A stretch of 64,000 nt of DNA from NCBI RefSeq assembly GCF_058153355.1, contig NZ_CM177019.1; one strand, written 5' to 3'. Every line of letters starts with the position of its first letter. Position 1 is the first letter of the stretch. Below are positions 6,043 to 52,007 of the stretch, in pieces. Both the position numbers and the translations under genes were made by a program. The notes below the pieces were generated by a model. It had not been told where the DNA came from and ran no database searches. It worked only from the letters and a program-made list of their open reading frames with translations.

Positions 6043-6150
6043 CGTTCATGCCGGATGCGGCGTGAACGCCTTATCCGGCCTACAAAAATCTTGCCAATTC
6101 AATATATTGCAGGATAGTGTAGGCCTGATAAGCGTAGCGCATCAGGCAGT
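6043..6150. repeat. REP (repetitive extragenic palindromic) elements between fepA and entD
   Basis: gccggatgcggcgtgaacgccttatccggcctac and inverted partner gtaggcctgataagcgtagcgcatcaggc are canonical E. coli REP sequences. Confidence 0.65.
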
Positions 6151-6825: not shown

Positions 6826-7290
6826 TCGCCCGCAGCCATCACTGACCACGGGCGAAAGTGTAAAGCAGGTGCCTTACCATCCTGACCTAACAACCGGATA
6901 TGCGGGGATTACTCCCCGCACAACGGCTACTTCTTCGGTTCGTAAGCGAGAACAGCCCTGAACTCAATATTACGTTCCTTTACGGTGAACTCACACAGCG
7001 AGTCGCCGACCAGAAGCGTAAATCCCAGCACTGTCAAACACAGCACTATGACCGCCACAAGGGCATATTTCGTCAGCATGTTTATATTGCCTCCATGCGA
7101 AGAAGGGACTACCATCCAAATTGTCTGGTTTGGAGTGGCGGCCCCAGGGTTGATAGAAATATCTCCTGGGGCTTCATCTTTCCAGACCTCAGAGTAAACC
7201 TGAAACCGGAAAGCTTCAGGCACCCGCCGTTATCTTACCCTTCCTTAGCAAAATGGCTGTTTATTTATACAGTGAGTCCTGTTTCGGACT
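6826..7290. repeat. Tandem repeat unit 1 of a hok/sok-type locus (~465 bp)
   Basis: Near-identical to 7328..7792 at an offset of 502 bp (direct tandem duplication with a few substitutions). Confidence 0.85.
6927..7079 (-). CDS. Hok-family type I toxin (membrane peptide), 50 aa, tandem copy 1
   Basis: C-terminal 50 aa of minus ORF 6927..7223: [50 protein letters not shown]; Hok/Gef family signature. Confidence 0.8.
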
Positions 7291-7327
7291 TCTGTTGGCA
7301 AAACTGATCATTGCCCTTAAAACGACA

Positions 7328-7792
7328 TCGCCCGCAGCCATCACTGACCGCGGGCGAAAGTGTAAAGCAGGTGCCTTACCATCCTGACCTGACAACCGGA
7401 TATGCGGGGATTACTCCCCGCACAACGGCTACTTCTTCGGTTCGTAAGCGAGAACAGCCTTAAACTCAATATTACGTTCCTTTACGGTGAACTCACACAG
7501 CGAGTCGCCGACAAGAAGCGTAAATCCCAGCACCGTCAAACACAGCACTATGACTGCCACAAAGGCATATTTCGTCAGCATGTTTATATTGCCTCCATGC
7601 GAAGAAGGGACTACCATCCAAATTGTTCGGGTTTGGAGTGGCAGCCCCAGGGTTGATAGAAATATCTCCTGGGGCTTCATCTTCCAGACCTCAGAGTAAA
7701 CCTGAAACCGGAAAGCTTCAGGCACCCGCCGTTATCTTACCCTTCCTTAGCAAAATAGCTGTTTATTTATACAGTTGGTCTTATTTCGGACT
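7328..7792. repeat. Tandem repeat unit 2 of a hok/sok-type locus (~465 bp)
   Basis: Direct repeat of 6826..7290. Confidence 0.85.
7429..7581 (-). CDS. hokE: Hok-family type I toxin HokE-like, 50 aa, tandem copy 2 (adjacent to ybdK)
   Basis: [50 protein letters not shown]; position next to ybdK matches the hokE locus of K-12. Confidence 0.8.
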
Positions 7793-8023
7793 TCTCACTA
7801 CGCATTAGATCAACCGAAACTAAGCCAGTTTTTCCTTCGCCCCTCAATCGTCAAAATTCTCCGCCGCCAGCCAGCTCTGCCATAACCTGGCACATTGCAA
7901 AAGTAGCCAAATTGCTTCAGTAGCAATCAGTTCACCATCACCAAAAAAAAAGAAACATTCCAGAACTTCCGCATCTCCCCCGGCCGCTCCCACTTCTATA
8001 CTGAAATGAAAACGCCAACATAA

Positions 8024-12080: not shown

Positions 12081-13457
12081 TTATTTCCGACGCAGCGTTT
12101 TAAACGCCACAAACAGGAATACAATCCACACTGGCAGCAAAATCGCTGACAAGCGCATATCATCCAACGTGCACATCAGCAGCAAAATCATGCCGAGGAA
12201 GGCAATGCAGAGATAATTGCCGAATGGATAAAGCAGCGCTTTAAACTGTGTTTCACGCCCCTGACGTCGCATCGCCGCGCGAAAACGCAGATGCGCCAGA
12301 CAGATCATAATCCAGTTCAACAGCAACGTTGCCACCACCAGCGCCATCAGCAGACCAAACGCTTTTTGCGGCAGCAGATAGTTAATCAGCACCACCAGAG
12401 AAGTGATCGCCCCGGAAAGCATCAGCGAGTTGATCGGCACACCGCGATGGCTAACGCGGGTAAGAAACTTCGGCGCATTACCCTGCACAGAAAGGCCAAA
12501 CAGCATGCGGCTGTTGGAGTAAACCCCACTGTTATAGACCGACAACGATGCCACCAGAATGACGAAATTCAGCGCAGAAGCCACCACATTGCTGTCGAGA
12601 TTATGGAAAATCATCACAAACGGGCTACTGTTAGATTTCACTTCCACCCACGGATAGAGCGCCAGTAAAACCACCAGTGAACCGATATAAAACAGCAGGA
12701 TGCGATAAACCACCTGATTTACCGCTTTTGGAATACTTTTTTCCGGATCGCGCGCTTCAGCCGCAGTAATCCCAATCAGTTCCAGCCCGCCGAAGGAAAA
12801 CATGATCACCGCCAAGGACAAAATCAGCCCATTCCAGCCCGTGGCGAAGAAACCACCATAGCGCCAAAGGTTGTCGATACTGGCTTTCTCACCGCCGTGA
12901 CCAGAAAACAGCAGCCACAGGCCAAAGCCGATCATGCCGATAATTGCCAGCACTTTAATCAGCGCAAACCAGAACTCAGTTTCGCCATATAAGCGCACGT
13001 TCACCAGGTTAACAGCGTTGATGATAATAAAGAAGGCGGCAGCCCAGATCCAGGTGGGAACATCCGGGAACCAGTACTGCATATAGATGCCCGCAGCGGT
13101 CAGCTCAGCCATCCCCACCAGTACGAACATCACCCAGTAGTTCCAGCCTGAGAGGAAGCCCGCAAACGGTCCCCAGTATTTATAGGCAAAGTGGGCAAAC
13201 GAACCGGATACCGGCTCCTCAACCACCATCTCGCCAAGCTGGCGCATAATCAGGAAAGCAATGATCCCGGCGACGCCGTAGCCCAACAAGACAGCCGGAC
13301 CTGCCATCTGAATCGCCGGGCCAATGCCAAGAAACAGACCAGTACCAATAGCGCCACCCAGCGCAATCAGTTGAATATGACGGTTATGTAATCCGCGATG
13401 AAGCGTCGGCTCTTTATTCGACGCAGTATCTTCCGATACGGTTGACGCGTTTTTCAC
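12081..13457 (-). CDS. pheP: Phenylalanine-specific permease PheP, 458 aa (GTG start)
   Basis: ORF track 12081..13493; GTG at 13457 gives (M)KNASTVSEDTASNKEPTLHRGLHNRHIQLIALGG, matching PheP; APC-family permease. Confidence 0.93.
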   Translation of the reverse strand: MKNASTVSEDTASNKEPTLHRGLHNRHIQLIALGGAIGTGLFLGIGPAIQMAGPAVLLGYGVAGIIAFLIMRQLGEMVVEEPVSGSFAHFAYKYWGPFAGFLSGWNYWVMFVLVGMAELTAAGIYMQYWFPDVPTWIWAAAFFIIINAVNLVNVRLYGETEFWFALIKVLAIIGMIGFGLWLLFSGHGGEKASIDNLWRYGGFFATGWNGLILSLAVIMFSFGGLELIGITAAEARDPEKSIPKAVNQVVYRILLFYIGSLVVLLALYPWVEVKSNSSPFVMIFHNLDSNVVASALNFVILVASLSVYNSGVYSNSRMLFGLSVQGNAPKFLTRVSHRGVPINSLMLSGAITSLVVLINYLLPQKAFGLLMALVVATLLLNWIMICLAHLRFRAAMRRQGRETQFKALLYPFGNYLCIAFLGMILLLMCTLDDMRLSAILLPVWIVFLFVAFKTLRRK

Positions 13458-13558
13458 GCCTTTCCCCTGTGTGTCTTTTTTGTTGAGGGGCACCTTTTAA
13501 CATTTAGTGCCCATCGTCGCAAGACACAATCCACACGGTTAAACCGGGTATCTTGCTT

Positions 13559-16500
13559 TTATTTCCGTACCCGGTGTCGGTGCAGCCACATCAGCTTATA
13601 CGCCGCCGGAATAATAAACAGCGACAGCAAAGGTGCGGTGATCATGCCGCCAATCATCGGCGCGGCAATCCGGCTCATCACCTCTGAACCTGCCCCCGTT
13701 CCCCACAAAATCGGCAGCAGACCCGCGATAATCACCGCCACCGTCATCGCTTTCGGGCGCACGCGCAGTACCGCGCCGTGATATAACGCTTCATCCAGCT
13801 TCTGCTCGCTGAATGTTTGCGGATTATCCAGGGATGGATCTGCCTCTATGGCGTGACGTAAATACATCAGCATCACCACGCCAAATTCGGCGGCGACTCC
13901 CGCGAGGGCGATAAAGCCAGTGCCCGTTGCCACGGAAAGATGAAAATCCATCCACCACAGCAACCAGATACCACCCACCAGCGCAAACGGTACGCTGCTG
14001 ATAATCAGTAACGCTTCACCCACGCGACGGAACGCCAGATACAACAGCACGAAGATGATCATCAGCGTCATCGGCACCATGAGTTTCAACTTATGGTTGG
14101 CGCGCTCCAGTAGCTCGAACTGCCCGGAGAATGCCACGCTGGTGCCCGGTTTTAACTGCACTTTCCCGGCAATCGCTTTTTGCAGATCGTGAACCACCGA
14201 CACCATGTCACGATCGCGGGCGTCGATATAAATCCAGCTCGTCGGGCGCGCATTCTCGGTTTTCAGCATCGACGGTCCAATGGAGACTTTAACGTCGGCC
14301 ACATCCGCCAGGGTGATTTGCTGCTTCATCGGCGTCAGGATCGGTAGCTGGCGCAGCGCCTGCAGGCTGTCGCGCCAGCTTTGCGAATAACGCAGATTAA
14401 TTGGATAACGGGCAATCCCTTCCACCGTTTCGCCAACCATCGCCCCGCCCACCGCAGAAGTCACAAACAACTGCACATCCGCCACCGTCATACCGTAACG
14501 CGCGGCTTTTTCACGGTTAATCTCAACGTTGATATAGCGCCCACCTTCCAGACGCTCAGCAAGAGCAGAAGCCACGCCTGGCACCGTTCGCGCCACTTCT
14601 TCAATTTGCTCCGCCATCGCGTCGATATCCGCCAGCACAGTGCCGGAAACTTTAATGCCGATGGGGCTTTTAATGCCGGTTGAGAGCATATCGATACGGT
14701 TACGAATTGGCGGCACCCACAGATTTGCCAGCCCCGGCAGACGCACGGTGTTGTCCAGTTCCTCAATGATTTTGTCCATCGTCATGCCTGGCCGCCACTG
14801 ATCCTGTGGCTTAAGCTGGATGGTCGTTTCTACCATCTCCAGCGGTGCGGAGTCGGTGGCGGTTTCCGCTTTCCCGGTTTTGCCAAACACCCGCGCCACT
14901 TCCGGCACGCTCATAATCAGCTTGTCGGTTTTTTGCAGCATACTCGCCGCCTCTGCTGCGGAAATCCCCGGCAGCGTCGATGGCATATACAACAAGTCGC
15001 CTTCATTGATCTGCGGTAAAAATTCCCCGCCAACTTTATTGAGCGGCCAGAGAACCGTCAGCACCGAAAGCGCTGCCACCAGCAGCGTGGTTTTCGGCCA
15101 GTGTAGTACTTTCAGCAACAGCGGATGATAAACACGAATCAAAAAGCGATTGAGCGGGTTACTGCTTTCTGGCGGAATTTTGCCACGGATCCAGTAGCCC
15201 ATCAGGATCGGGATCACTACGATCGCCAGCAGCGCCGCGCCCGCCATCGCATACGTTTTGGTGAACGCCAGCGGGCCAAACAGACGCCCTTCCTGTCCTT
15301 CCAGAGTAAAGATCGGGATAAACGACAACGTGATAATCAGCAAGCTGATAAACAGCGCCGGCCCCACTTCAACAGATGCATCGGTGATCACCTGCCAGCG
15401 CGTTTTATTATCCAGCGTGGCGTCAGGATGCTGGTGCTGCCACTCTTCCAGCCGTTTATGCGCATTCTCGATCATGACGATAGCGGCATCGACCATCGCC
15501 CCGACGGCAATCGCAATACCGCCCAGCGACATAATATTGGCATTCAGCCCCTGGAAGTGCATGATAATAAAAGCAATACACAACCCCAGCGGCAACGAAA
15601 TAATCGCCACCAGTGCCGAGCGCACATGCCAGAGAAACAGCGCGCAGACCATCGCCACCACAATAAACTCTTCCAGCAACTTGCCGCTGAGGTTGTCGAT
15701 GGCGCGGTCAATAAGCTGGCTGCGATCGTATGTTGTAACTATCTCTACGCCTTCCGGCAGACTGCTTTTCAGCGTTTCCAGTTTGTCCTTCACGGCGGCG
15801 ATCACTTCACGGGCGTTTTTGCCGGAACGCAGGATCACCACCCCGCCCGCCACTTCGCCTTCGCCGTTCAGTTCGGCAATGCCCCGGCGCATCTCCGGGC
15901 CAACCTGGACCTTCGCAACATCACGCAGATAAACGGGTACACCATTTTCACTGGCTTTTAAAACGATGTGATTGAAGTCGTCGAGCGTTTGCAGATAGCC
16001 GCTGGCGCGCACCATATATTCCGCTTCCGCCAGTTCGATCGACGAACCGCCCGCTTCCTGGTTTGAAGCATCCAGCGCGCTTTTTACTTCGGCGAGACTG
16101 ATGCCATATTGCGCCAGGCGCTGTGGATCGATAACCACCTGATACTCTTTCACCACACCGCCCACCGACGCCACTTCCGCAACGTCAGGGATGGTTTTTA
16201 GCTCATATTTGAGAAACCAGTCCTGCAATGAGCGTAAATCGGCCAGATCGTGCTTACCGCTGCGATCCACCAGTGCATATTCATAGATCCAGCCAACACC
16301 CGTGGCATCTGGCCCCAACTCGGCGCTGACTCCCGCAGGCAGCTTACCCTGTACCTGGTTGAGGTACTCCAGCACCCGCGAGCGCGCCCAGTACGGATCG
16401 GTGCCATCTTCGAAAATGACATACACATAAGAGTCGCCAAACTGCGAGAAACCGCGCACAGTCTTCGCGCCAGGTACTGACAACATGGTGGTGGTTAGCG

Positions 16501-16702
16501 GATAAGTCACCTGATTTTCAACGATTTGCGGTGCCTGACCGGGATAGCTGGTTTTAATAATCACCTGCACATCGGAGAGATCCGGCAGCGCATCCACTGG
16601 CGTGTTAATGATAGTCCAGGTGCCCCAGATACTCAGAAACAACGCGCCCATCAGCACCAGAAAACGGTTCGCCACCGAGCGACGAATAATCCATTCAATC
16701 AT
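13559..16702 (-). CDS. cusA: RND-family Cu(I)/Ag(I) efflux pump inner-membrane transporter CusA, 1047 aa
   Basis: 1047-aa ORF starting [29 protein letters not shown]; heavy-metal RND transporter; last gene of cusCFBA. Confidence 0.96.
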
Positions 16703-16713
16703 TGGTTATTCCC

Positions 16714-17937
16714 TCAATGCGCATGGGTAGCACTTTCAGAGCGCATCCGCTCCAGTGCGCCAGAAATATTGGCTTCAGAATCAATCAGGAACAGGCCGCT
16801 GGAAACCACCTTTTCACCTTCCGCCAGACCAGAACGTAGCGCGGTGACGCCTTGCGACGCCTGGAAAACAGCAACGCGTTTCGGTACAAAGCGCCCGTCG
16901 GCATCAACGGTAATCACCCGCTGTTCGTTACCAGTATCAATCAGTGCCTGTGACGGAATGAGCAGCATCGGTTCGCTGGCGGTGTTGAGTTGCAACCAGG
17001 CGTTCATTCCCGGTTTTAGCGCCTCGTCGGCGTTGTCGACTTCCAGACGCAGTTGCAGCGTGCGGGTCGCGGCATCCACGCCGGGTAGAAGGGTCCATTT
17101 GCGGATGCTGAGCGTTTTATCCGGTCGCGCCGGAACGGTGAGCGTAAACTGCGAGGCATCTTTCACCAGCCAGGCGATGGACTCCGGGATCGCAGCAGTG
17201 ACCCACACCGGGTCCATACCCTGAATTTTCGCGACCACATTATCTTTGGCGATATTCATTCCCGCGCGCAGATCAAACGCGGTGATCACGCCATCAATGG
17301 GCGCTTTGAGCGTAAAGCGAGTCTGGATTTTTTGCGTGGTAATCAGGCGGCGAATATCGGCCTCCGGCATTCCCGCCAGCCGCAGGCGTTCAAGAATGCC
17401 TTCAGTCTGGGTCGCCGTCCCGCCGGTTTCGCGCAGCAGTAAATACTCACTCTGCGCTTCCACCCAGTCGGGAATGGTCAGGTCGAGAAGCGGTGTGCCC
17501 TTTTGCACTTTATCGCCCACGGTGAGCGGATACACCTTGTCGATAAACCCGGCGGCGCGGGCCTGCACAATGGCAAACTGATACTCGTTGTAACTCACAT
17601 TCGCCGGGAAACTCTGGGCAAAAGTCAGCGGCCCGCGCGTGACGGTCGCCGTTTTCACCCCCAGATTTTGCGTCTGGGTCGGGTCAATGCGCACACCAGA
17701 CACAGAACTCTCTTCATCGGCATATTTCGGCACCAGATCCATATCCATAAACGGCGATTTACCTGGTTTATCGAACCGCGTATTGGGATACATTGGATCG
17801 TACCAGAATAAGACTTTACGTTCTGCGGTCGACGTTTTTTCTGCGGGCGGTTCAGCCTTTGCAAACCAGGTAAAACCTGCCGCAGAAATAATACCGCCCG
17901 CGATCATGCTGCCGATAATAAGCGCGATTTTTTTCAT
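16714..17937 (-). CDS. cusB: Cu(I)/Ag(I) efflux membrane fusion protein CusB, 407 aa
   Basis: 407-aa ORF MKKIALIIGSMIAGGIISAAGFTWF; 11-nt gap to cusA; synteny. Confidence 0.95.
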   Translation of the reverse strand: MKKIALIIGSMIAGGIISAAGFTWFAKAEPPAEKTSTAERKVLFWYDPMYPNTRFDKPGKSPFMDMDLVPKYADEESSVSGVRIDPTQTQNLGVKTATVTRGPLTFAQSFPANVSYNEYQFAIVQARAAGFIDKVYPLTVGDKVQKGTPLLDLTIPDWVEAQSEYLLLRETGGTATQTEGILERLRLAGMPEADIRRLITTQKIQTRFTLKAPIDGVITAFDLRAGMNIAKDNVVAKIQGMDPVWVTAAIPESIAWLVKDASQFTLTVPARPDKTLSIRKWTLLPGVDAATRTLQLRLEVDNADEALKPGMNAWLQLNTASEPMLLIPSQALIDTGNEQRVITVDADGRFVPKRVAVFQASQGVTALRSGLAEGEKVVSSGLFLIDSEANISGALERMRSESATHAH

Positions 17938-17952
17938 CTCATTAAACCTGGG

Positions 17953-18285
17953 TTACTGGCTGACTTTAATATCCTGTAATAAAGAAAGGTTGCCCTGCTG
18001 GACAAAATTAAACGCTACTTTGTCGCCAGTTTTAATTTCACTCATTTTCGTCTGCGGGGTGATGGTAAAGCGCATGGTCATCTCCGGCCAGTTCACTGCG
18101 GCAATCGGATCGTGGTGGATGGTGATTTTTTTGCTTTCCAGATCAACACCTTTTACCACACCGGTGGCGCTAATAACCTGTGGTTGTGCTTCGCTCATGG
18201 TTTCATGGTGATGTTCGTTAGCCTGGGCATTAAAGCCAATAACAGTAAACAGACTGAACATTACGACTTGCAGTGCTTTTTTCAT
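17953..18285 (-). CDS. cusF: Periplasmic copper/silver chaperone CusF, 110 aa
   Basis: 110-aa ORF with signal peptide MKKALQVVMFSLFTVIGFNAQA and metal-binding H/M/W residues. Confidence 0.93.
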   Translation of the reverse strand: MKKALQVVMFSLFTVIGFNAQANEHHHETMSEAQPQVISATGVVKGVDLESKKITIHHDPIAAVNWPEMTMRFTITPQTKMSEIKTGDKVAFNFVQQGNLSLLQDIKVSQ

Positions 18286-18307
18286 TATTCTCTCCTGGAG
18301 TTAAAAT

Positions 18308-19690
18308 TTATTGCTGCCAACCGCCACCCAGGGCGGTATATAAGGAAACTTCGTTAACCTGACGGGCATAATTCAGGTCGAGTAAAATTTGTCGGGTTGC
18401 AAATAAGGAACGCTCGGCATCCAGCACTTCCAGATAACTTACCGCGCCGTGCTGATATAATGCCCGCGCCCGTTGCAAAGTAATTTGCAGCGACGCCAGA
18501 TAACGCTGCTGGGCGCTGATTTGATCGTTCAGGCTTTGACGTAATGCAAGCGCATCTGCCACTTCTTTAAAGGCGTTCTGAATTTTCTGTTCATAATTCA
18601 CCACCGACTGCTGCTGGCGAATTTCGGCGATATCCAGATTGGCCTGGTTGCGTCCAGAATTAAAAATGGGGATCTCAATTTTGGGAATAAAATTCCACAT
18701 CCCGCTGCTGGCGTTAAATAATGATGACAGATCGCTGCTGGCGGTTGATATTCCACTGGTCAGGCTTATAGACGGGAAAAATGCCGCACGCGCAGCACCA
18801 ATATTGGCATTGGCCGCCATTAACGCGTGTTCAGCTTCCATAATATCCGGGCGCTGCAATAAGATTTGCGACGACAAGCCCGCCGGTAATTTAACGCTTT
18901 GCAGGCTGTCGCTGTTTACTGTCTGCGCTTGCGGCAGCTTGCCGTAGTTTCCCAATAACAGTTGCAATGCATTATTCGCCTGCGCCAGTTCCCCCTGACG
19001 TTTAGCGATATCACTGCGGGTACTTTCTATCACCCCGCGAGCCTGTTCCAGCGCCAGAACATTGCTGCTACCGGTCAACAGTTGTTTTTCAACAAACGCA
19101 TATGACTGCTGATAATTACGCAGCGTTTCTTCGGCTATTTGTAATTGCGCATAAGCCAGTTGCTGATTGAAATAGCTTTGCGCGACATTAGAAACCAGCA
19201 GAATATGCACCGCGCGCTGAGCTTCCTCAGTGGCTAAATAATTTTGTCGCTCGGCTTCGCTCATGTTCTTTAAGCGACCGAAAAAATCGAGATCAAAGCT
19301 GGCGTTAAGGCCAGTCGAGAACTCCCGCGTCGTGGCTGAATCGCCTTTAAGATTGCCGCTCCAGCTGCCGCTACCCTCGCCATTGAGCTGCGGGTAGCGG
19401 TCGGCATCGGTCAGACGATATTGCGCCCGTGCCTCCTGCACTTTCAGCGTCGCCATGCGCAAATCCCGATTATTCACCAGCGCCTCGCTAATCAGCGTCT
19501 TCACCTGATTATCAACAAAAAAGGTGCGCCAGCCCGCGTTCTGGTAGTTATCTACTGCGTTAACCAGGCCGTTCTGGCTGAGTGAGAACTGCTGCGGCAC
19601 GGGCATTGCCGGACGCTGATAATCCGGTGCCAGTGAACAACCGGTTAGCGCAAGGGCCACACAAAATGGCAGAAGTTTACAAGGAGACAT
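18308..19690 (-). CDS. cusC: Outer-membrane efflux channel CusC (TolC-like lipoprotein)
   Basis: ORF track 18308..19696; MSPCKLLPFCVALALTGCSLAPDYQRP contains a lipobox (LTGC); start codon choice approximate. Confidence 0.93.
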   Translation of the reverse strand: MSPCKLLPFCVALALTGCSLAPDYQRPAMPVPQQFSLSQNGLVNAVDNYQNAGWRTFFVDNQVKTLISEALVNNRDLRMATLKVQEARAQYRLTDADRYPQLNGEGSGSWSGNLKGDSATTREFSTGLNASFDLDFFGRLKNMSEAERQNYLATEEAQRAVHILLVSNVAQSYFNQQLAYAQLQIAEETLRNYQQSYAFVEKQLLTGSSNVLALEQARGVIESTRSDIAKRQGELAQANNALQLLLGNYGKLPQAQTVNSDSLQSVKLPAGLSSQILLQRPDIMEAEHALMAANANIGAARAAFFPSISLTSGISTASSDLSSLFNASSGMWNFIPKIEIPIFNSGRNQANLDIAEIRQQQSVVNYEQKIQNAFKEVADALALRQSLNDQISAQQRYLASLQITLQRARALYQHGAVSYLEVLDAERSLFATRQILLDLNYARQVNEVSLYTALGGGWQQ

Positions 19691-19759
19691 AGGCACATAA
19701 TTTCTGGTGATTTTATGCCGCCAACTTTACACGCCAGGCTCTGATTTTCCGGTGACAGG

Positions 19760-19781
19760 AAAATGACAAAATTGTCATTTT
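19760..19781. promoter_or_regulatory. CusR box in the divergent cusC / cusR promoter region
   Basis: Perfect palindrome aaaatgacaaaattgtcatttt between cusC and cusR, matching the recalled CusR binding site. Confidence 0.75.
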
Positions 19782-19846
19782 ACCAATAAGCGATTGCCAT
19801 CTGATCCCGCTACTCTAGAATTGCCCGGGCAACATGTGGAGGAAAT

Positions 19847-20530
19847 ATGAAACTGTTGATTGTCGAAGATGAAAAGAAAACCGGAGAATACTTGACCAAA
19901 GGGTTAACCGAAGCCGGTTTTGTGGTCGATTTGGCCGACAACGGGCTGAATGGCTACCATCTGGCGATGACCGGAGATTATGACCTGATAATCCTCGATA
20001 TTATGCTGCCGGACGTGAACGGCTGGGATATCGTGCGCATGTTGCGCTCCGCCAATAAAGGGATGCCGATTCTGTTGCTTACCGCGCTTGGCACCATTGA
20101 ACATCGCGTCAAGGGGCTGGAGTTGGGGGCAGATGACTACCTGGTGAAACCGTTCGCTTTTGCTGAACTGCTGGCGCGGGTGCGGACTCTACTGCGTCGC
20201 GGGGCGGCGGTGATTATCGAAAGTCAGTTTCAGGTTGCCGATTTAATGGTTGATCTGGTCAGCCGCAAAGTCACCCGCAGCGGCACGCGCATCACTTTGA
20301 CCACAAAAGAATTTACCCTGCTGGAATTTTTCCTCCGCCATCAGGGCGAAGTGCTGCCCCGCTCGCTTATCGCCTCGCAGGTGTGGGACATGAATTTCGA
20401 CAGCGACACTAACGCCATTGATGTGGCGGTGAAGCGGCTGCGCGGCAAAATCGACAACGACTTTGAGCCAAAGCTAATTCAGACCGTGCGCGGCGTAGGC
20501 TATATGCTTGAGGTGCCGGATGGCCAGTAA
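19847..20530 (+). CDS. cusR: Copper-responsive two-component response regulator CusR (OmpR family), 227 aa
   Basis: 227-aa [28 protein letters not shown]; receiver plus winged-helix domains. Confidence 0.95.
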
Positions 20531-21968
20531 GCCGTTTCAGCGCCCGTTTTCGCTGGCAACCCGCCTGACCTTTTTTATCAGCCTTGCCACCATTGCAGCG
20601 TTTTTCGTCTTTGCCTGGATCATGATCCACTCGGTAAAAGTGCATTTTGCCGAGCAGGATATTAATGATTTAAAAGAGATTAGCGCCACATTCAGGCGTG
20701 TTCTTAATCATCCCGAAGAGACACAAGCCCGACGCTTAATGACGCTGGAAGATATCGTCAGTGGTTATTCCAACGTGTTGATTTCTCTGACAGATAGCCA
20801 CGGCAAAACGGTGTATCACTCCCCCGGTGCGCCGGATATCCGCGAGTTTGCACGTGATGCCATACCCGATAAAGACGCTCGGAGCGGCGAGGTATATCTC
20901 CTTTCCGGCCCAACAAAGATGATGCCAGGCCACGGTCACGGGCATATGGAACACAGCAACTGGCGGATGATTAGCTTGCCGGTTGGCCCGCAGGTGGATG
21001 GCAAACCGATTTATACGCTCTACATCGCGCTGTCTATCGATTTTCATCTTCATTACATTAATGATTTGATGAATAAACTTATTATGACCGCATCGATCAT
21101 CAGCATCCTGATCGTCTTTATCGTGCTGCTGGCGGTACATAAAGGCCACGCGCCAATTCGCAGCGTCAGCCGTCAAATCCAGAACATTACCTCGAAAGAT
21201 CTCGACGTTCGCCTCGATCCACAGACCGTGCCGATTGAGCTGGAACAACTGGTACTGTCGTTCAACCATATGATCGAGCGTATTGAAGATGTCTTTACCC
21301 GCCAGTCCAATTTCTCAGCGGATATCGCTCACGAAATTCGTACGCCGATTACGAATCTTATAACGCAAACGGAAATTGCCCTCAGCCAGTCGCGCAGCCA
21401 GAAGGAGCTGGAAGATGTGCTCTACTCTAATCTCGAAGAGCTGACGCGAATGGCGAAAATGGTCAGCGATATGCTGTTTCTCGCCCAGGCCGATAACAAC
21501 CAGTTAATCCCCGAAAAGAAAATGCTCAACCTGGCGGATGAAGTCGGCAAAGTGTTCGATTTTTTCGAGGCATTAGCGGAAGATCGTGGCGTGGTGCTGC
21601 GGTTTGTTGGCGACGAATGTCAGGTTGCGGGCGATCCGCTGATGCTGCGTCGGGCGTTAAACAACCTGCTTTCTAATGCCTTGCGTTATACGCCACCCGG
21701 AGAGGCAATTTTAGTGCGCTGCCAGACGGTCGATCACCTGGTGCAAGTTACCGTCGAAAACCCTGGTACGCCCATTGCGCCTGAGCACTTACCGCGATTG
21801 TTTGACCGTTTCTACCGCGTTGATCCTTCCCGCCAGCGAAAAGGTGAAGGTAGCGGCATTGGGCTGGCGATAGTGAAATCAATTGTTGTCGCGCATAAAG
21901 GCACGGTTGCGGTAACGTCAGATGCGCGGGGGACAAGGTTTGTTATCGGGCTACCGGAGAGGGAGTGA
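20520..21968 (+). CDS. cusS: Copper/silver sensor histidine kinase CusS
   Basis: ORF track 20508..21968; ATG at 20520 gives [29 protein letters not shown]-box [11 protein letters not shown]; overlaps cusR end by 11 nt. Confidence 0.93.
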
Positions 21969-22325
21969 TTGGTCAGATAATGCAGTGGATGTTAATTGAA
22001 TTGAGAATTAGCTATTTCGTCACGAGAAAAAGCGTAAAATCCGTTTCGTGCAGATGGTGAGTTTTATCAGGGTATGGCGGTAGCGCAACTGTCTTTGGAT
22101 AATATATGTGATATGAATACATACCCCTAACAACTTCACTAACTAAATACTTAGTTTAGTTATATTAATTTGCATAATACAAACTCATCACCACGATATG
22201 TCATATATTTATAGTCAGCAATCTGGATATATTATTATATAAATGCCATATGGAAATAAAAATTATTATTTAATTCAATATGTAAATTTTACTCTTAACT
22301 ATTTTCGCAGGATAAACCAGCCTCT

Positions 22326-41995: not shown

Positions 41996-42505
41996 ATGTC
42001 TTCCCGCAATAATCCGGCGCGTGTCGCCATCGTGATGGGGTCCAAAAGCGACTGGGCTACCATGCAGTTCGCCGCCGAAATCTTCGAAATCCTGAATGTC
42101 CCGCACCACGTTGAAGTGGTTTCTGCTCACCGCACCCCCGATAAACTGTTCAGCTTCGCCGAAAGTGCCGAAGAGAACGGTTATCAGGTGATTATTGCTG
42201 GCGCAGGCGGCGCAGCGCACCTGCCGGGCATGATTGCCGCCAAAACGCTGGTGCCAGTGCTGGGTGTGCCAGTACAGAGCGCCGCACTGAGCGGTGTCGA
42301 TAGCCTCTACTCCATCGTACAAATGCCGCGCGGCATTCCGGTGGGTACGCTGGCGATTGGTAAAGCTGGCGCGGCAAACGCGGCGTTACTGGCAGCACAA
42401 ATTCTTGCAACTCATGATAAAGAACTGCACCAGCGTTTGAATGACTGGCGCAAAGCCCAGACTGATGAAGTGCTGGAAAACCCGGACCCGCGAGGTGCGG
42501 CATGA
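41996..42505 (+). CDS. purE: N5-carboxyaminoimidazole ribonucleotide mutase PurE, 169 aa
   Basis: ORF track 41969..42505; ATG at 41996 gives [20 protein letters not shown]. Confidence 0.96.
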
Positions 42506-43569
42506 AACAGGTTTGCGTCCTCGGTAACGGGCAGTTAGGCCGTATGTTGCGCCAGGCAGGCGAACCGTTAGGCATTGCTGTCTGGCCGGTCGGGCTGGAC
42601 GCTGAACCGGCGGCGGTGCCCTTTCAACAAAGCGTGATTACCGCTGAGATCGAACGCTGGCCGGAAACCGCATTAACGCGCGAGTTGGCACGCCATCCGG
42701 CCTTTGTGAACCGCGATGTGTTCCCAATTATTGCCGACCGTCTGACTCAGAAGCAGCTTTTCGACAAGCTTCACCTGCCGACCGCACCGTGGCAGTTACT
42801 TGCCGATCGCAGTGAGTGGCCTGCAGTGTTTGATCGTTTAGGTGAACTGGCGATTGTTAAGCGTCGCACTGGTGGCTATGACGGTCGCGGTCAATGGCGT
42901 TTACGCGCCGATGAAACCGCACAGTTACCGACTGAATGCTACGGCGAATGTATTGTCGAGCAGGGCATTAACTTCTCTGGCGAAGTATCGCTGGTTGGCG
43001 CGCGCGGCTTTGATGGCAGCACTGTGTTTTATCCGCTGACGCATAACCTGCATCAGGACGGTATTTTGCGCACCAGCGTCGCTTTCCCGCAGGCCAACGC
43101 ACAGCAGCAGGCGCAGGCCGAAGAGATGCTGTCGGCGATTATGCAGGAGCTGGGCTATGTTGGCGTGATGGCGATGGAGTGTTTTGTCACCCCGCAAGGT
43201 CTGCTGATCAACGAACTGGCTCCGCGTGTACATAACAGTGGTCACTGGACGCAAAACGGTGCCAGCATCGGCCAGTTTGAGCTGCATCTGCGGGCAATTA
43301 CCGATCTGCCGTTACCGCAACCGGTGGTCAATAGCCCGTCAGTGATGATCAACCTGATTGGTAGCGATGTGAACTATGACTGGCTGAAACTGCCGCTGGT
43401 GCATCTGCACTGGTACGACAAAGAAGTGCGTCCGGGCCGTAAGGTGGGGCATCTGAATTTGACCGACAGCGACACATCGCGTCTGACCGCAACGCTGGAA
43501 GCTTTAATCCCGCTGCTGCCGCCAGAGTATGCCAGCGGCGTGATGTGGGCGCAGAGTAAGTTCAGTTAA
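42502..43569 (+). CDS. purK: N5-carboxyaminoimidazole ribonucleotide synthase PurK, 355 aa
   Basis: 355-aa ATP-grasp [19 protein letters not shown]; start overlaps purE stop (ATGA). Confidence 0.96.
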
Positions 43570-43584
43570 CCTGGTACTCATATT

Positions 43585-43790
43585 CCTGCCGGATGCGGCG
43601 TGAACGCCTTATCCGGCCTACTAATCCGGTACCCATTGTAGGCCTGATAAGAGGCGTCAAGCGTCGCATCAGGCATGGTGCGCCGATTACCGGATGCGGC
43701 GTGAACGCCTTATCCGACTACCAATCCGGTACCCATTGTAGGCCTGATAAGAGGCGTCAAGCGTCGCATCAGGCATGGTGCGCCATATGC
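43585..43790. repeat. BIME/REP cluster: two ~100-bp direct repeats each containing inverted REP elements
   Basis: ccggatgcggcgtgaacgccttatccg...gtaggcctgataagaggcgtcaagcgtcgcatcaggcatggtgcgcc occurs twice in tandem between convergent purK and ybcF. Confidence 0.75.
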
Positions 43791-43802
43791 TGGATGCTCC
43801 CA

Positions 43803-44699
43803 TCACGACAGCGAAATACAGGTCCCCGCTTCGCCCGCCAGCGTCTCTTCAATCCGCGATAACGCCCCAATCCACGCAGGTTTACCACGGCTTCTGACAT
43901 AGCCACTCACCGCCGTTACCTTCGGTCCCATCGCCCCATCGGCTTTGGCAAATGGCGCTAACTCATCCGGTGTGGCATGGGGAATGGCGCGTTGCTGCGG
44001 CGTTCCCCAGTTTTCATAAACCGCATCAGCATCGGTGAGGATCACCAGTCCATCGGCATTAATCTGCTCGGCAAGCAACGCCGCGGCGAGATCTTTATCA
44101 ATCACCGCTTCACTCCCTGCTCCGTCATCCGTCACCGGAACACCGCCGCCGCCACTGCAAATCACCACATGCCCCTCTTTGAGCAACAACTCGATGGCTT
44201 CGCTGTCGAGAATTTTACGAGGCTGGGGAGATGCCACCACCCGGCGTAAATATTTGCCATCACGCTTCATTTGCCAGCCGTAAGTCGTTTCCAGTGCCTC
44301 TTGTTCTTCTGGCTGATAAACCGGGCCGATAAACTTCTCTGGCTGCAAAAACGCCGGATCATCAGGCGAAACTTCAATGCGCGTCAGCATCGTCGTGACA
44401 GGCGGCATCTGCGGCTGTGCGCTCAAGCTCTGCGCCAGCATATAGCCAATCATCCCCTGGCTTTCCGCCACCAGCACATCCAGCGGATACGGTTCTACCT
44501 CTTTCCACGCCAGATTCTGTAACGCCAGCAGCCCCACCTGTGGCCCGTTGCCGTGAACAATCGCCAGCCGATAAGAACGGGCCAGGCGCGCCAGTGCGGG
44601 TACAGCACTGGCAATGTTGCGATATTGATTTTCTGCCGTCAGCGCTTCGCCGCGCTGGAGTAAGGCGTTGCCCCCAAGAGCCACAACCAGTGTTTTCAT
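43803..44699 (-). CDS. ybcF: Carbamate kinase-like protein YbcF (ArcC family)
   Basis: 298-aa [21 protein letters not shown], amino-acid kinase family; synteny with ylbF-ylbE-fdrA. Confidence 0.88.
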
Positions 44700-45511
44700 G
44701 GTGTTCCTTGTAATAATTGTTGACCAAGCCAGAACCCCAGCAGCGTATCTGCCCCTGACGTATGCCCCAGCGCCAGCAGCGAATCAATCGCAACAGCGGT
44801 ACGTTTCGGGCAACTCAGAGCATGAACAAAGTGCAGGAGTGGCGAGGCGAAATATCCTTGCGCGGCGTAACGTAAATAATTAACGCTCACCGCCGTGGTA
44901 ACGAGTTGAAGATTGTCGGAACAGGCAAAAAACGGGCGACCGGAGCGCGCATCTAAAGCGCCAAAATACCAGGCCGCCAGCAGCATTCCGCTCAGCGTGT
45001 CATCATGACTCGGCGTTAATCCCGGCCCTTTACCCAGCCAGTGCCGCCAGTCGGTCTTAACGCCATTGAGCGCGGCCTGAAAACAGTGACGAAACTGGCG
45101 TAATTCAGCGGGAAGCGGATCGCCTGCCGCCAACGCCAGCGGCCCGAAAAGCCCGGTTTCCTCCGCGCGTTGCATCCATGCCGCTGCAAGCGGTTGAGGA
45201 TGCGCAGGCGGCGTAATACGCAGCAAACAATAACGCTGTGGCTGTTTAACCGTGAAACGCCCGAGGCGAATCCCTTGAGCCATAACCTGCGGTCGTTCAT
45301 TGCCGCATAATCCACCGCATAACGCATCGAATTGTGCGCGGCGAAGCACCCATCCTCCGGGACCGAAACCACTTCCCTGACGATGTAGCGTTAACAGTTC
45401 GCCGCTTTCTGTCAGCAGATTAATCGCCCGCCGCCAGATGCCCGCTAACCGCCAGGACTGGCGATAGTCAGGTGCACTACGACTGGCAAGCAGAGGATGG
45501 ATGATCGTCAT
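44696..45511 (-). CDS. ylbF: Uncharacterized protein YlbF (DUF2877), 271 aa
   Basis: ORF track 44696..45604; internal ATG at 45511 ([16 protein letters not shown]) gives 271 aa; 4-nt overlap with ybcF. Confidence 0.82.
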
Positions 45512-45521
45512 TGCGCGTTCC

Positions 45522-51877: not shown

Positions 51878-52007
51878 GTCATACCACTCGCCTGATTATT
51901 TTTAGCTATGTTGGATTTTGCCACGGTTTATACCGTGGCTTTTTTTTTGTAGTCAATTCAGGTAAAAAAAGATGCGATATAAATCGCATCCGCTTTAAAG
52001 GTAAGAG

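Follow-up and report, generated by a model that had tools for sequence, protein, structure and literature searches.

Descriptions of BIME-2 arrays, and of how their copy number varies between strains, go back to the 1990s. In the Gilson/Bachellier classification, as summarised in PMC3333891, they combine z2 and y REPs across a short linker, S, and are present in tandem copies. BIME-1 elements, by contrast, are single-copy combinations of z1 and y with a long linker, L, and often with an IHF site (Ton-Hoang et al. 2012, PMC3333891). The copy number of a BIME at any one locus varies from strain to strain, and the units found there are well conserved (PMC3333891).

Several activities have been attributed to these elements. 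BIME-2 elements, and mainly their Y REPs, are enriched in gyrase cleavage sites, independently of transcription (PMC6379681); they have also been proposed to act as topological barriers (PMC10592627). At other loci, REP hairpins block 3'-5' exonucleases and act as leaky, partly Rho-dependent attenuators. The REP325 cluster is both a terminator and a stabiliser (bioRxiv 10.64898/2026.03.23.713779). According to the same preprint, REPs between convergent genes are associated with raised expression of the two genes, many such REPs lie in bidirectional terminators, and mRNA half-lives are not uniformly lengthened by REPs.

Here we describe a repeat between purK and ybcF in a 64,000-nt stretch of Escherichia coli DNA, hereafter the window. 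The element is a BIME-2 array, comprising two tandem units that each consist of a Y REP, a short linker and an inverted Z2 REP. It is an ordinary array, already known as a kind and polymorphic as expected, and it matters little alone; K-12 also carries a REP cluster between purK and ybcF. Taking the reading as a whole, we are highly confident that this is a BIME-2 array whose copy number varies by recombination or slippage, and for which roles as a 3'-end barrier, an attenuator and a gyrase site may be proposed by analogy.

Layout and classification of the purK-ybcF array

Tandem Repeats Finder reports a sole array at this place, at 43589-43784, with a period of 100, 2.0 copies, 96% matches, 1% indels and a score of 371. 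A separate repeat search returns pairs of 80 nt at 93% identity with a spacing of 100, and of 27 nt at 100% identity with a spacing of 101. The unit is therefore 100/101 bp long and is present in two head-to-tail copies that are 96% identical, within a purK-ybcF spacer of 233 bp; a 196-nt repeat of this identity is far above chance expectation. These results bear out the sequence-only reading, which had placed a ~100-bp REP unit at 43585-43790, twice in direct tandem and with few mismatches.

That reading had also placed the repeat between convergent genes, and here too it was correct. The purK coding sequence (355 aa, 42502-43569, + strand) is supported by the list of open reading frames, by a match to NCBIfam NF004678 at 671 bits and by RefSeq annotation of homologous loci. 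The ybcF-type carbamate kinase (298 aa, 43803-44699, − strand) is likewise in the list of open reading frames and matches NCBIfam NF006926 at 615 bits, and in other E. coli genomes, too, RefSeq annotates the homologous region with the two genes converging. The purK stop codon, TAA, is at 43567-43569, with the first REP stem starting 18 nt beyond it; on the other side, the ybcF stop codon lies 28 nt from the end of the last REP stem. The length of YbcF itself differs slightly between lineages, being 298 aa in the lineage of the window against 297 aa in K-12 and most strains: the position of the K-12 ybcF stop is a sense codon in the window, where the stop comes one codon further on, at the very edge of the BIME (43803-43808). 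An 89-aa open reading frame at 43593-43862 (+ strand) spans the REPs and continues into ybcF antisense; we treat it as a by-product of the repeat.

Each unit runs from a Y REP through a 16-nt linker to an inverted Z2 REP, and then through a 14-15-nt linker to the next unit. The first Y REP (43588-43621, + strand) matches the 34-nt Y consensus with 0 mismatches and folds into a hairpin of -21.3 kcal/mol, its CTAC foot being at 43618-43621. Next come a short, S-type linker of 16 nt, TAATCCGGTACCCATT (43622-43637), and the first Z2 REP (43638-43674, − strand), which is 37 nt long, inverted relative to the Y and one mismatch from the Z2 pattern; alignment and folding energies single out a private C>G substitution in it, at 43653. 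The inter-unit linker ATGGTGCGCCGATT (43675-43688), delimited from the sequence and the unit alignment, leads to the second Y REP (43689-43722, + strand). In this copy the foot is degenerate, CCG-ACTAC replacing CCGGCCTAC, the lower stem is shorter, and the hairpin is weaker at -15.3 kcal/mol, compared with -21.3 for the first Y; in the alignment the same variant is present in N96, 2013C-4282, MFDS1022581 and 2017-02-2CC. A second short linker, of 15 nt, AATCCGGTACCCATT (43723-43737), precedes the second inverted Z2 REP (43738-43774, − strand), which is again one mismatch from the Z2 pattern and carries a private C>G at 43753. The right flank (43775-43802) contains a remnant of a third Y start, CTGGATGC, at 43790-43797, which is as far as the repeat extends, and abuts the ybcF stop.

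For the Y and Z2 consensus strings used in this assignment, a BIME-1-type element elsewhere in the window serves as an internal check. With these patterns, 0 chance matches are expected, as judged from 100 shuffles of the window. The second CTAC foot is at 43718-43721 and the GTAG feet are at 43638-43641 and 43738-43741. Internal mismatches are present in each REP fold, and the stem beside the CTAC of the second Y is shortened.

Both strands of the array fold better than shuffled sequence (z = -5.2 and -3.6). The 18 units compared are 95% paired; the covariation score is equalled by 65 of 500 shuffles. Since covariation is thus no better than in shuffles, the stems are backed by conservation and not by compensatory change. 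In this strain three of the four stems, those of the two Z2 copies and of the second Y, are weakened.

The array shares with described BIME-2 elements the alternation of Y and Z2, the short linker, the tandem units of ~100 bp and the extragenic site, as well as a strain-dependent copy number and near-identical units within one locus. Nothing essential sets it apart; its peculiarities are the degenerate foot of the second Y and the private, weakening C>G in both Z2 stems. It belongs to a dispersed, high-copy family, with a median of at least 37-38 megablast places per E. coli genome.

With BIME-1, or RIP, elements the array has in common a Y REP and a head-to-head REP pair. BIME-1, however, is single-copy, with a linker of ~35 nt that carries an IHF site and a 29-nt Z1, whereas the present array has tandem units, linkers of 16 nt that lack an IHF site, and a Z2 of 37 nt. 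The window provides its own example for comparison, a BIME-1-type element at 6050-6147 composed of a Y REP (6050-6083), a 35-nt linker (6084-6118) and an inverted Z1 (6119-6147). Its linker contains an IHF motif with one mismatch at 6097-6109, and matches the Rfam family ES036 at 6085-6126 with 44.4 bits against a gathering score of 37.6. The Z1 is the 29-nt form and within the window matches at 6119-6147 alone; from this length it follows that both of the allele families found at purK-ybcF (see below) are of the Y/Z2 type.

The sequence-only reading had stated that BIMEs are binding sites for gyrase and IHF. For BIME-2 in general, gyrase binding is the property reported (PMC6379681). The IHF half of the statement does not apply to this element: IHF binding is a property of the L linker of BIME-1 (PMC3333891), and a search of 43570-43802 for the IHF consensus WATCAANNNNTTR found no site at 0 or 1 mismatch. 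That general statement is also what speaks for an alternative in which the element is of the BIME-1/RIP type and serves mainly for IHF binding. Besides the missing IHF consensus, the linkers of 14-16 nt are not of the long L type, and the Z REP is the long Z2, not Z1. A related proposal would have a REP control the termination of upstream translation by stalling ribosomes. Liang, Rudd and Deutscher reportedly found in 2015 that REPs near stop codons stall ribosomes. A REP-mediated effect on translation is reported to be limited, however, to within about 15 nt of the stop codon, and the stems here are past that limit on both sides, at the distances of 18 nt from the purK stop and 28 nt from the ybcF stop given above. 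We therefore regard this pair of explanations, IHF binding or ribosome stalling, as extremely improbable.

Copy number of the array across E. coli

Comparing the locus between strains, we used as query 300 bp of each coding flank, leaving out the repeat, against about 5,426 complete E. coli genomes. From the ranked matches 60 records were taken at even steps, 59 of which had both flanks, and the spacer length was read in each. At least one representative of each length class was read directly, the other genomes being classed by length alone. The commonest states in this sample are a single unit, with a spacer of 123-135 bp (22/59 genomes), and the K-12 form, with a spacer of 191-201 bp (21/59). 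Five units (529-530 bp) were found in 10 genomes, while two units (229 bp), three units (329-334 bp) and an unrelated insert with no BIME (149 bp) were each found in 2 of the 59. The claim that copy number at this site varies between strains, which the sequence-only reading had made, is confirmed by this comparison, with alleles of one to five units. The purK-ybcF spacer is thus a hypervariable marker, its length in E. coli running from about 123 bp up to 530 bp.

In the K-12 form, as read in MG1655, a Y and a Z2 are followed by a second Y that is mostly deleted, CCGGATGCGGC being joined directly to ACCGGTT, and then by a Z2. Two families of Y/Z2 unit occur at the site, distinguished by their linker and by the length of their Z2: CCGGTACCCATT goes with a Z2 of 37 nt, and CCAACACCGACT with a Z2 of 36 nt. 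The allele of the window has two units with a TAATCC linker, and a two-unit span is present in 6 records among its best matches, namely N96, 2013C-4282, WL297, 2017-02-2CC and two MFDS strains. EC42405, a close relative, has three units by way of an additional copy of the first. Units 1 and 2 differ from one another at the Y tail and the 3' linker, and these differences are common to four aligned relatives, from which we conclude that the duplication is not fresh but predates this group of strains.

The window belongs to a minor lineage of E. coli, being 99.0-99.5% identical to N96, MFDS1022581 and WL297 across sfm-folD, compared with ~97-98% for most strains. Over 41 kb its identity to N96 is 98.3%. 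One segment departs from this: the pheP-cus region at 12084-22149 is 96.9% identical to N96, against 98.3% for the rest of the window, and this divergence in the alignment suggests a recombination tract.

In some strains, EFF60 among them (400-551 of its locus sequence, homologous to 43570-43802), the spacer has no BIME but 149-154 nt of unrelated sequence. This insert contains a C-rich palindrome, CCCCCTCACCCTAACCCTCTCCCC...GGGGCGAGGGG, and is present at full length in 238 of 5,426 genomes; its core of ~50 nt is found at another locus in other strains. It may be a Box C-type repeat. About 3% of the sampled genomes have no BIME at this site, which indicates that the element is dispensable.

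The variation in unit number also bears on whether the locus might be a gene for a small RNA. A junction module made up of the inverted second Y, the linker and the first Z2 (43641-43719, − strand) scores 65.9 bits with the Rfam model for naRNA4, RF02564, whose gathering score is 59.5, and naRNA4 was itself described from REP325, a six-unit Y/Z2 cluster (PMC4550694). On that basis the locus could be proposed to encode a nucleoid-associated small RNA of the naRNA4 type that binds HU and condenses the chromosome. The number of RF02564 matches above threshold, however, equals the number of units minus one: the one-unit and K-12 alleles have none, and alleles of two, three and five units have 1, 2 and 4, respectively. 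The model thus matches any junction of adjacent units. A weak match to the same model, of 32 bits, extends over the right flank at 43741-43806. Such tracking of unit junctions indicates a repeat family shared with REP325 and not a specific gene for a small RNA. The two loci do share their repeat family and unit layout, in addition to the junction that here passes the Rfam threshold, but REP325 consists of six units between tandem genes of one operon (yjdM-yjdN), whereas the present array consists of two units between convergent genes, purK and ybcF. Furthermore, according to a 2026 preprint whose group includes an original naRNA4 author, REP325/naRNA4 does not compact the nucleoid to a measurable extent (bioRxiv 10.64898/2026.03.23.713779). 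We consider it very unlikely that the locus is a naRNA4-type gene. The Rfam naRNA4 model picks out BIME junctions in general, and a match to it should not be taken for an sRNA gene call.

A paired substitution in the two Z2 copies

When the window is compared with 2013C-4282 over 291 nt, there are two differences, and both are C>G changes at the homologous base of the two Z2 copies (43653 and 43753). A search for the G variant, using a 37-nt query in which each 28-mer seed spans the variant base and which covers the 37-nt Z2 subtype only, gave 0 matches in 5,426 genomes. The control query with C, the ancestral Z2, matched at 21,399 places in 5,396 genomes. The substitution falls on the sole stem pair that is variable among units (columns 67/77). 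It makes the Z2 hairpin less stable, at -18.6 instead of -21.8 kcal/mol on the + strand and -15.5 instead of -21.3 kcal/mol on the − strand.

By a rough estimate, the chance that an independent second substitution would be identical and fall on the homologous base is ~1 in 900. This low figure points to transfer from one copy to the other, by gene conversion or unequal exchange, as the likeliest cause of the pair. The alternative is an effect of assembly.

We considered whether assembly or sequencing across a 100-bp tandem repeat could have produced the duplication, or the paired C>G, as an artefact. Short tandem repeats can be mis-polished, in that reads mapping to both copies would write one base into both, and the absence of the G variant from other genomes would fit such an error. 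The duplication itself, however, is hard to explain in this way: at least four independent assemblies that were read directly share both the two units and the differences between them, and the six best-match records named above have the two-unit span. A sequencing error affecting the ACGCGT motif generally was also considered and rejected, given that 13 ACGCGT sites are kept intact and that 0 of 65 other C/G transversions relative to N96 occur in that context. An artefact is, in our judgement, decidedly unlikely, with a small probability left for mis-polishing of the single base in one copy, and copy-to-copy transfer stays the preferred cause of the paired substitution.

The REP transposase, RAYT or TnpA-REP, has to be weighed as the agent acting on this array. 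In vitro, single-stranded BIMEs are cleaved and recombined by TnpA-REP, which is also able to assemble multiple REPs (PMC3333891). Three of the four REPs here have the features that the enzyme requires, namely GTAG/CTAC feet and mismatches in the stem. Against this, perfect 100-bp direct repeats suffice as substrates for slippage or unequal exchange, and either process between the units would be enough without a transposase. The sequence-only reading had suggested looking for RAYT genes elsewhere in the genome; that search was run within the window, where no homologue was found (tblastn with K-12 RayT, best E = 0.74, compared with 3.9e-124 for the K-12 positive control). Nor does any RAYT gene adjoin its REPs in the window, the arrangement by which a REPtron is recognised. 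In N96, the nearest relative, the slot between yafL and flhA of the lateral-flagellar region (44887-45514 of its locus sequence), where K-12 has rayT, is occupied by a hicA/hicB toxin-antitoxin pair, and no RayT match was found in the 167 kb examined. Across the species, a search with K-12 rayT DNA detects the gene in 3,575 of the 5,426 genomes only. A role for RAYT as the agent at this array thus appears unlikely to us, and we prefer recombination or slippage between the repeats. The hicAB pair of N96 adjoins an apparently complete Flag-2 lateral flagellar cluster.

A broader proposal would join these observations: that the C>G pair records a recent copy-to-copy transfer within the array, in a strain whose nearest relative has no RAYT at the usual site, such that host recombination, and not the REP transposase, both homogenises and resizes such arrays. 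We hold this proposal to be rather unlikely. Were it true, the one-to-five-unit alleles might be a strain-specific dial on the 3' ends of the transcripts of purEK and of the ybcF operon. As a clean, small case of concerted evolution among tandem REPs, the paired private mutation lends itself to asking whether RAYT is needed for homogenisation.

Proposed roles and other features of the window

The simplest account of the array is one in which the 100-bp direct repeats would recombine out of register, or slip during replication, and copy number would change as a result. Either this process or gene conversion over short tracts would keep the units alike, with the private C>G pair as a possible trace of it.

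As to function, analogy with the published systems suggests that, when transcribed from either side, the hairpins would form a 3'-end barrier to 3'-5' exonucleases. They may also serve as a leaky, partly Rho-dependent attenuator that limits read-through from each of the convergent genes towards the other. At the level of DNA, the Y REPs would be a preferred site for gyrase. By this comparison, the role of the element would most likely be that of a two-way 3'-end hairpin barrier and gyrase site. An intrinsic terminator, in the sense of a GC-rich hairpin followed by a T/U run, was sought on both strands of 43300-44100, and 0 terminator-like sites were found. The supplements to the gyrase Topo-seq study (PMC6379681) hold no entry for purK or ybcF, and in those of the REP preprint (bioRxiv 10.64898/2026.03.23.713779) the two genes appear in the differential-expression tables only.

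Several features elsewhere in the window were recorded in the course of this analysis. Two matches to the sok antitoxin RNA, at 7071-7225 and 7573-7727 (both − strand; 83.9 and 76.4 bits), indicate duplicated hok/sok modules. The surrounding region, 6826-7797, aligns to several places in N96, where there are copies of IS421 and three hokE genes. At 51884-51950 (− strand) there is an Rfam match to the enterobacterial small RNA STnc480, of 86.1 bits against a gathering score of 72. Finally, a tRNA-Arg with the anticodon TCT (30291-30367, − strand) adjoins the fimZ/sfm fimbrial cluster.
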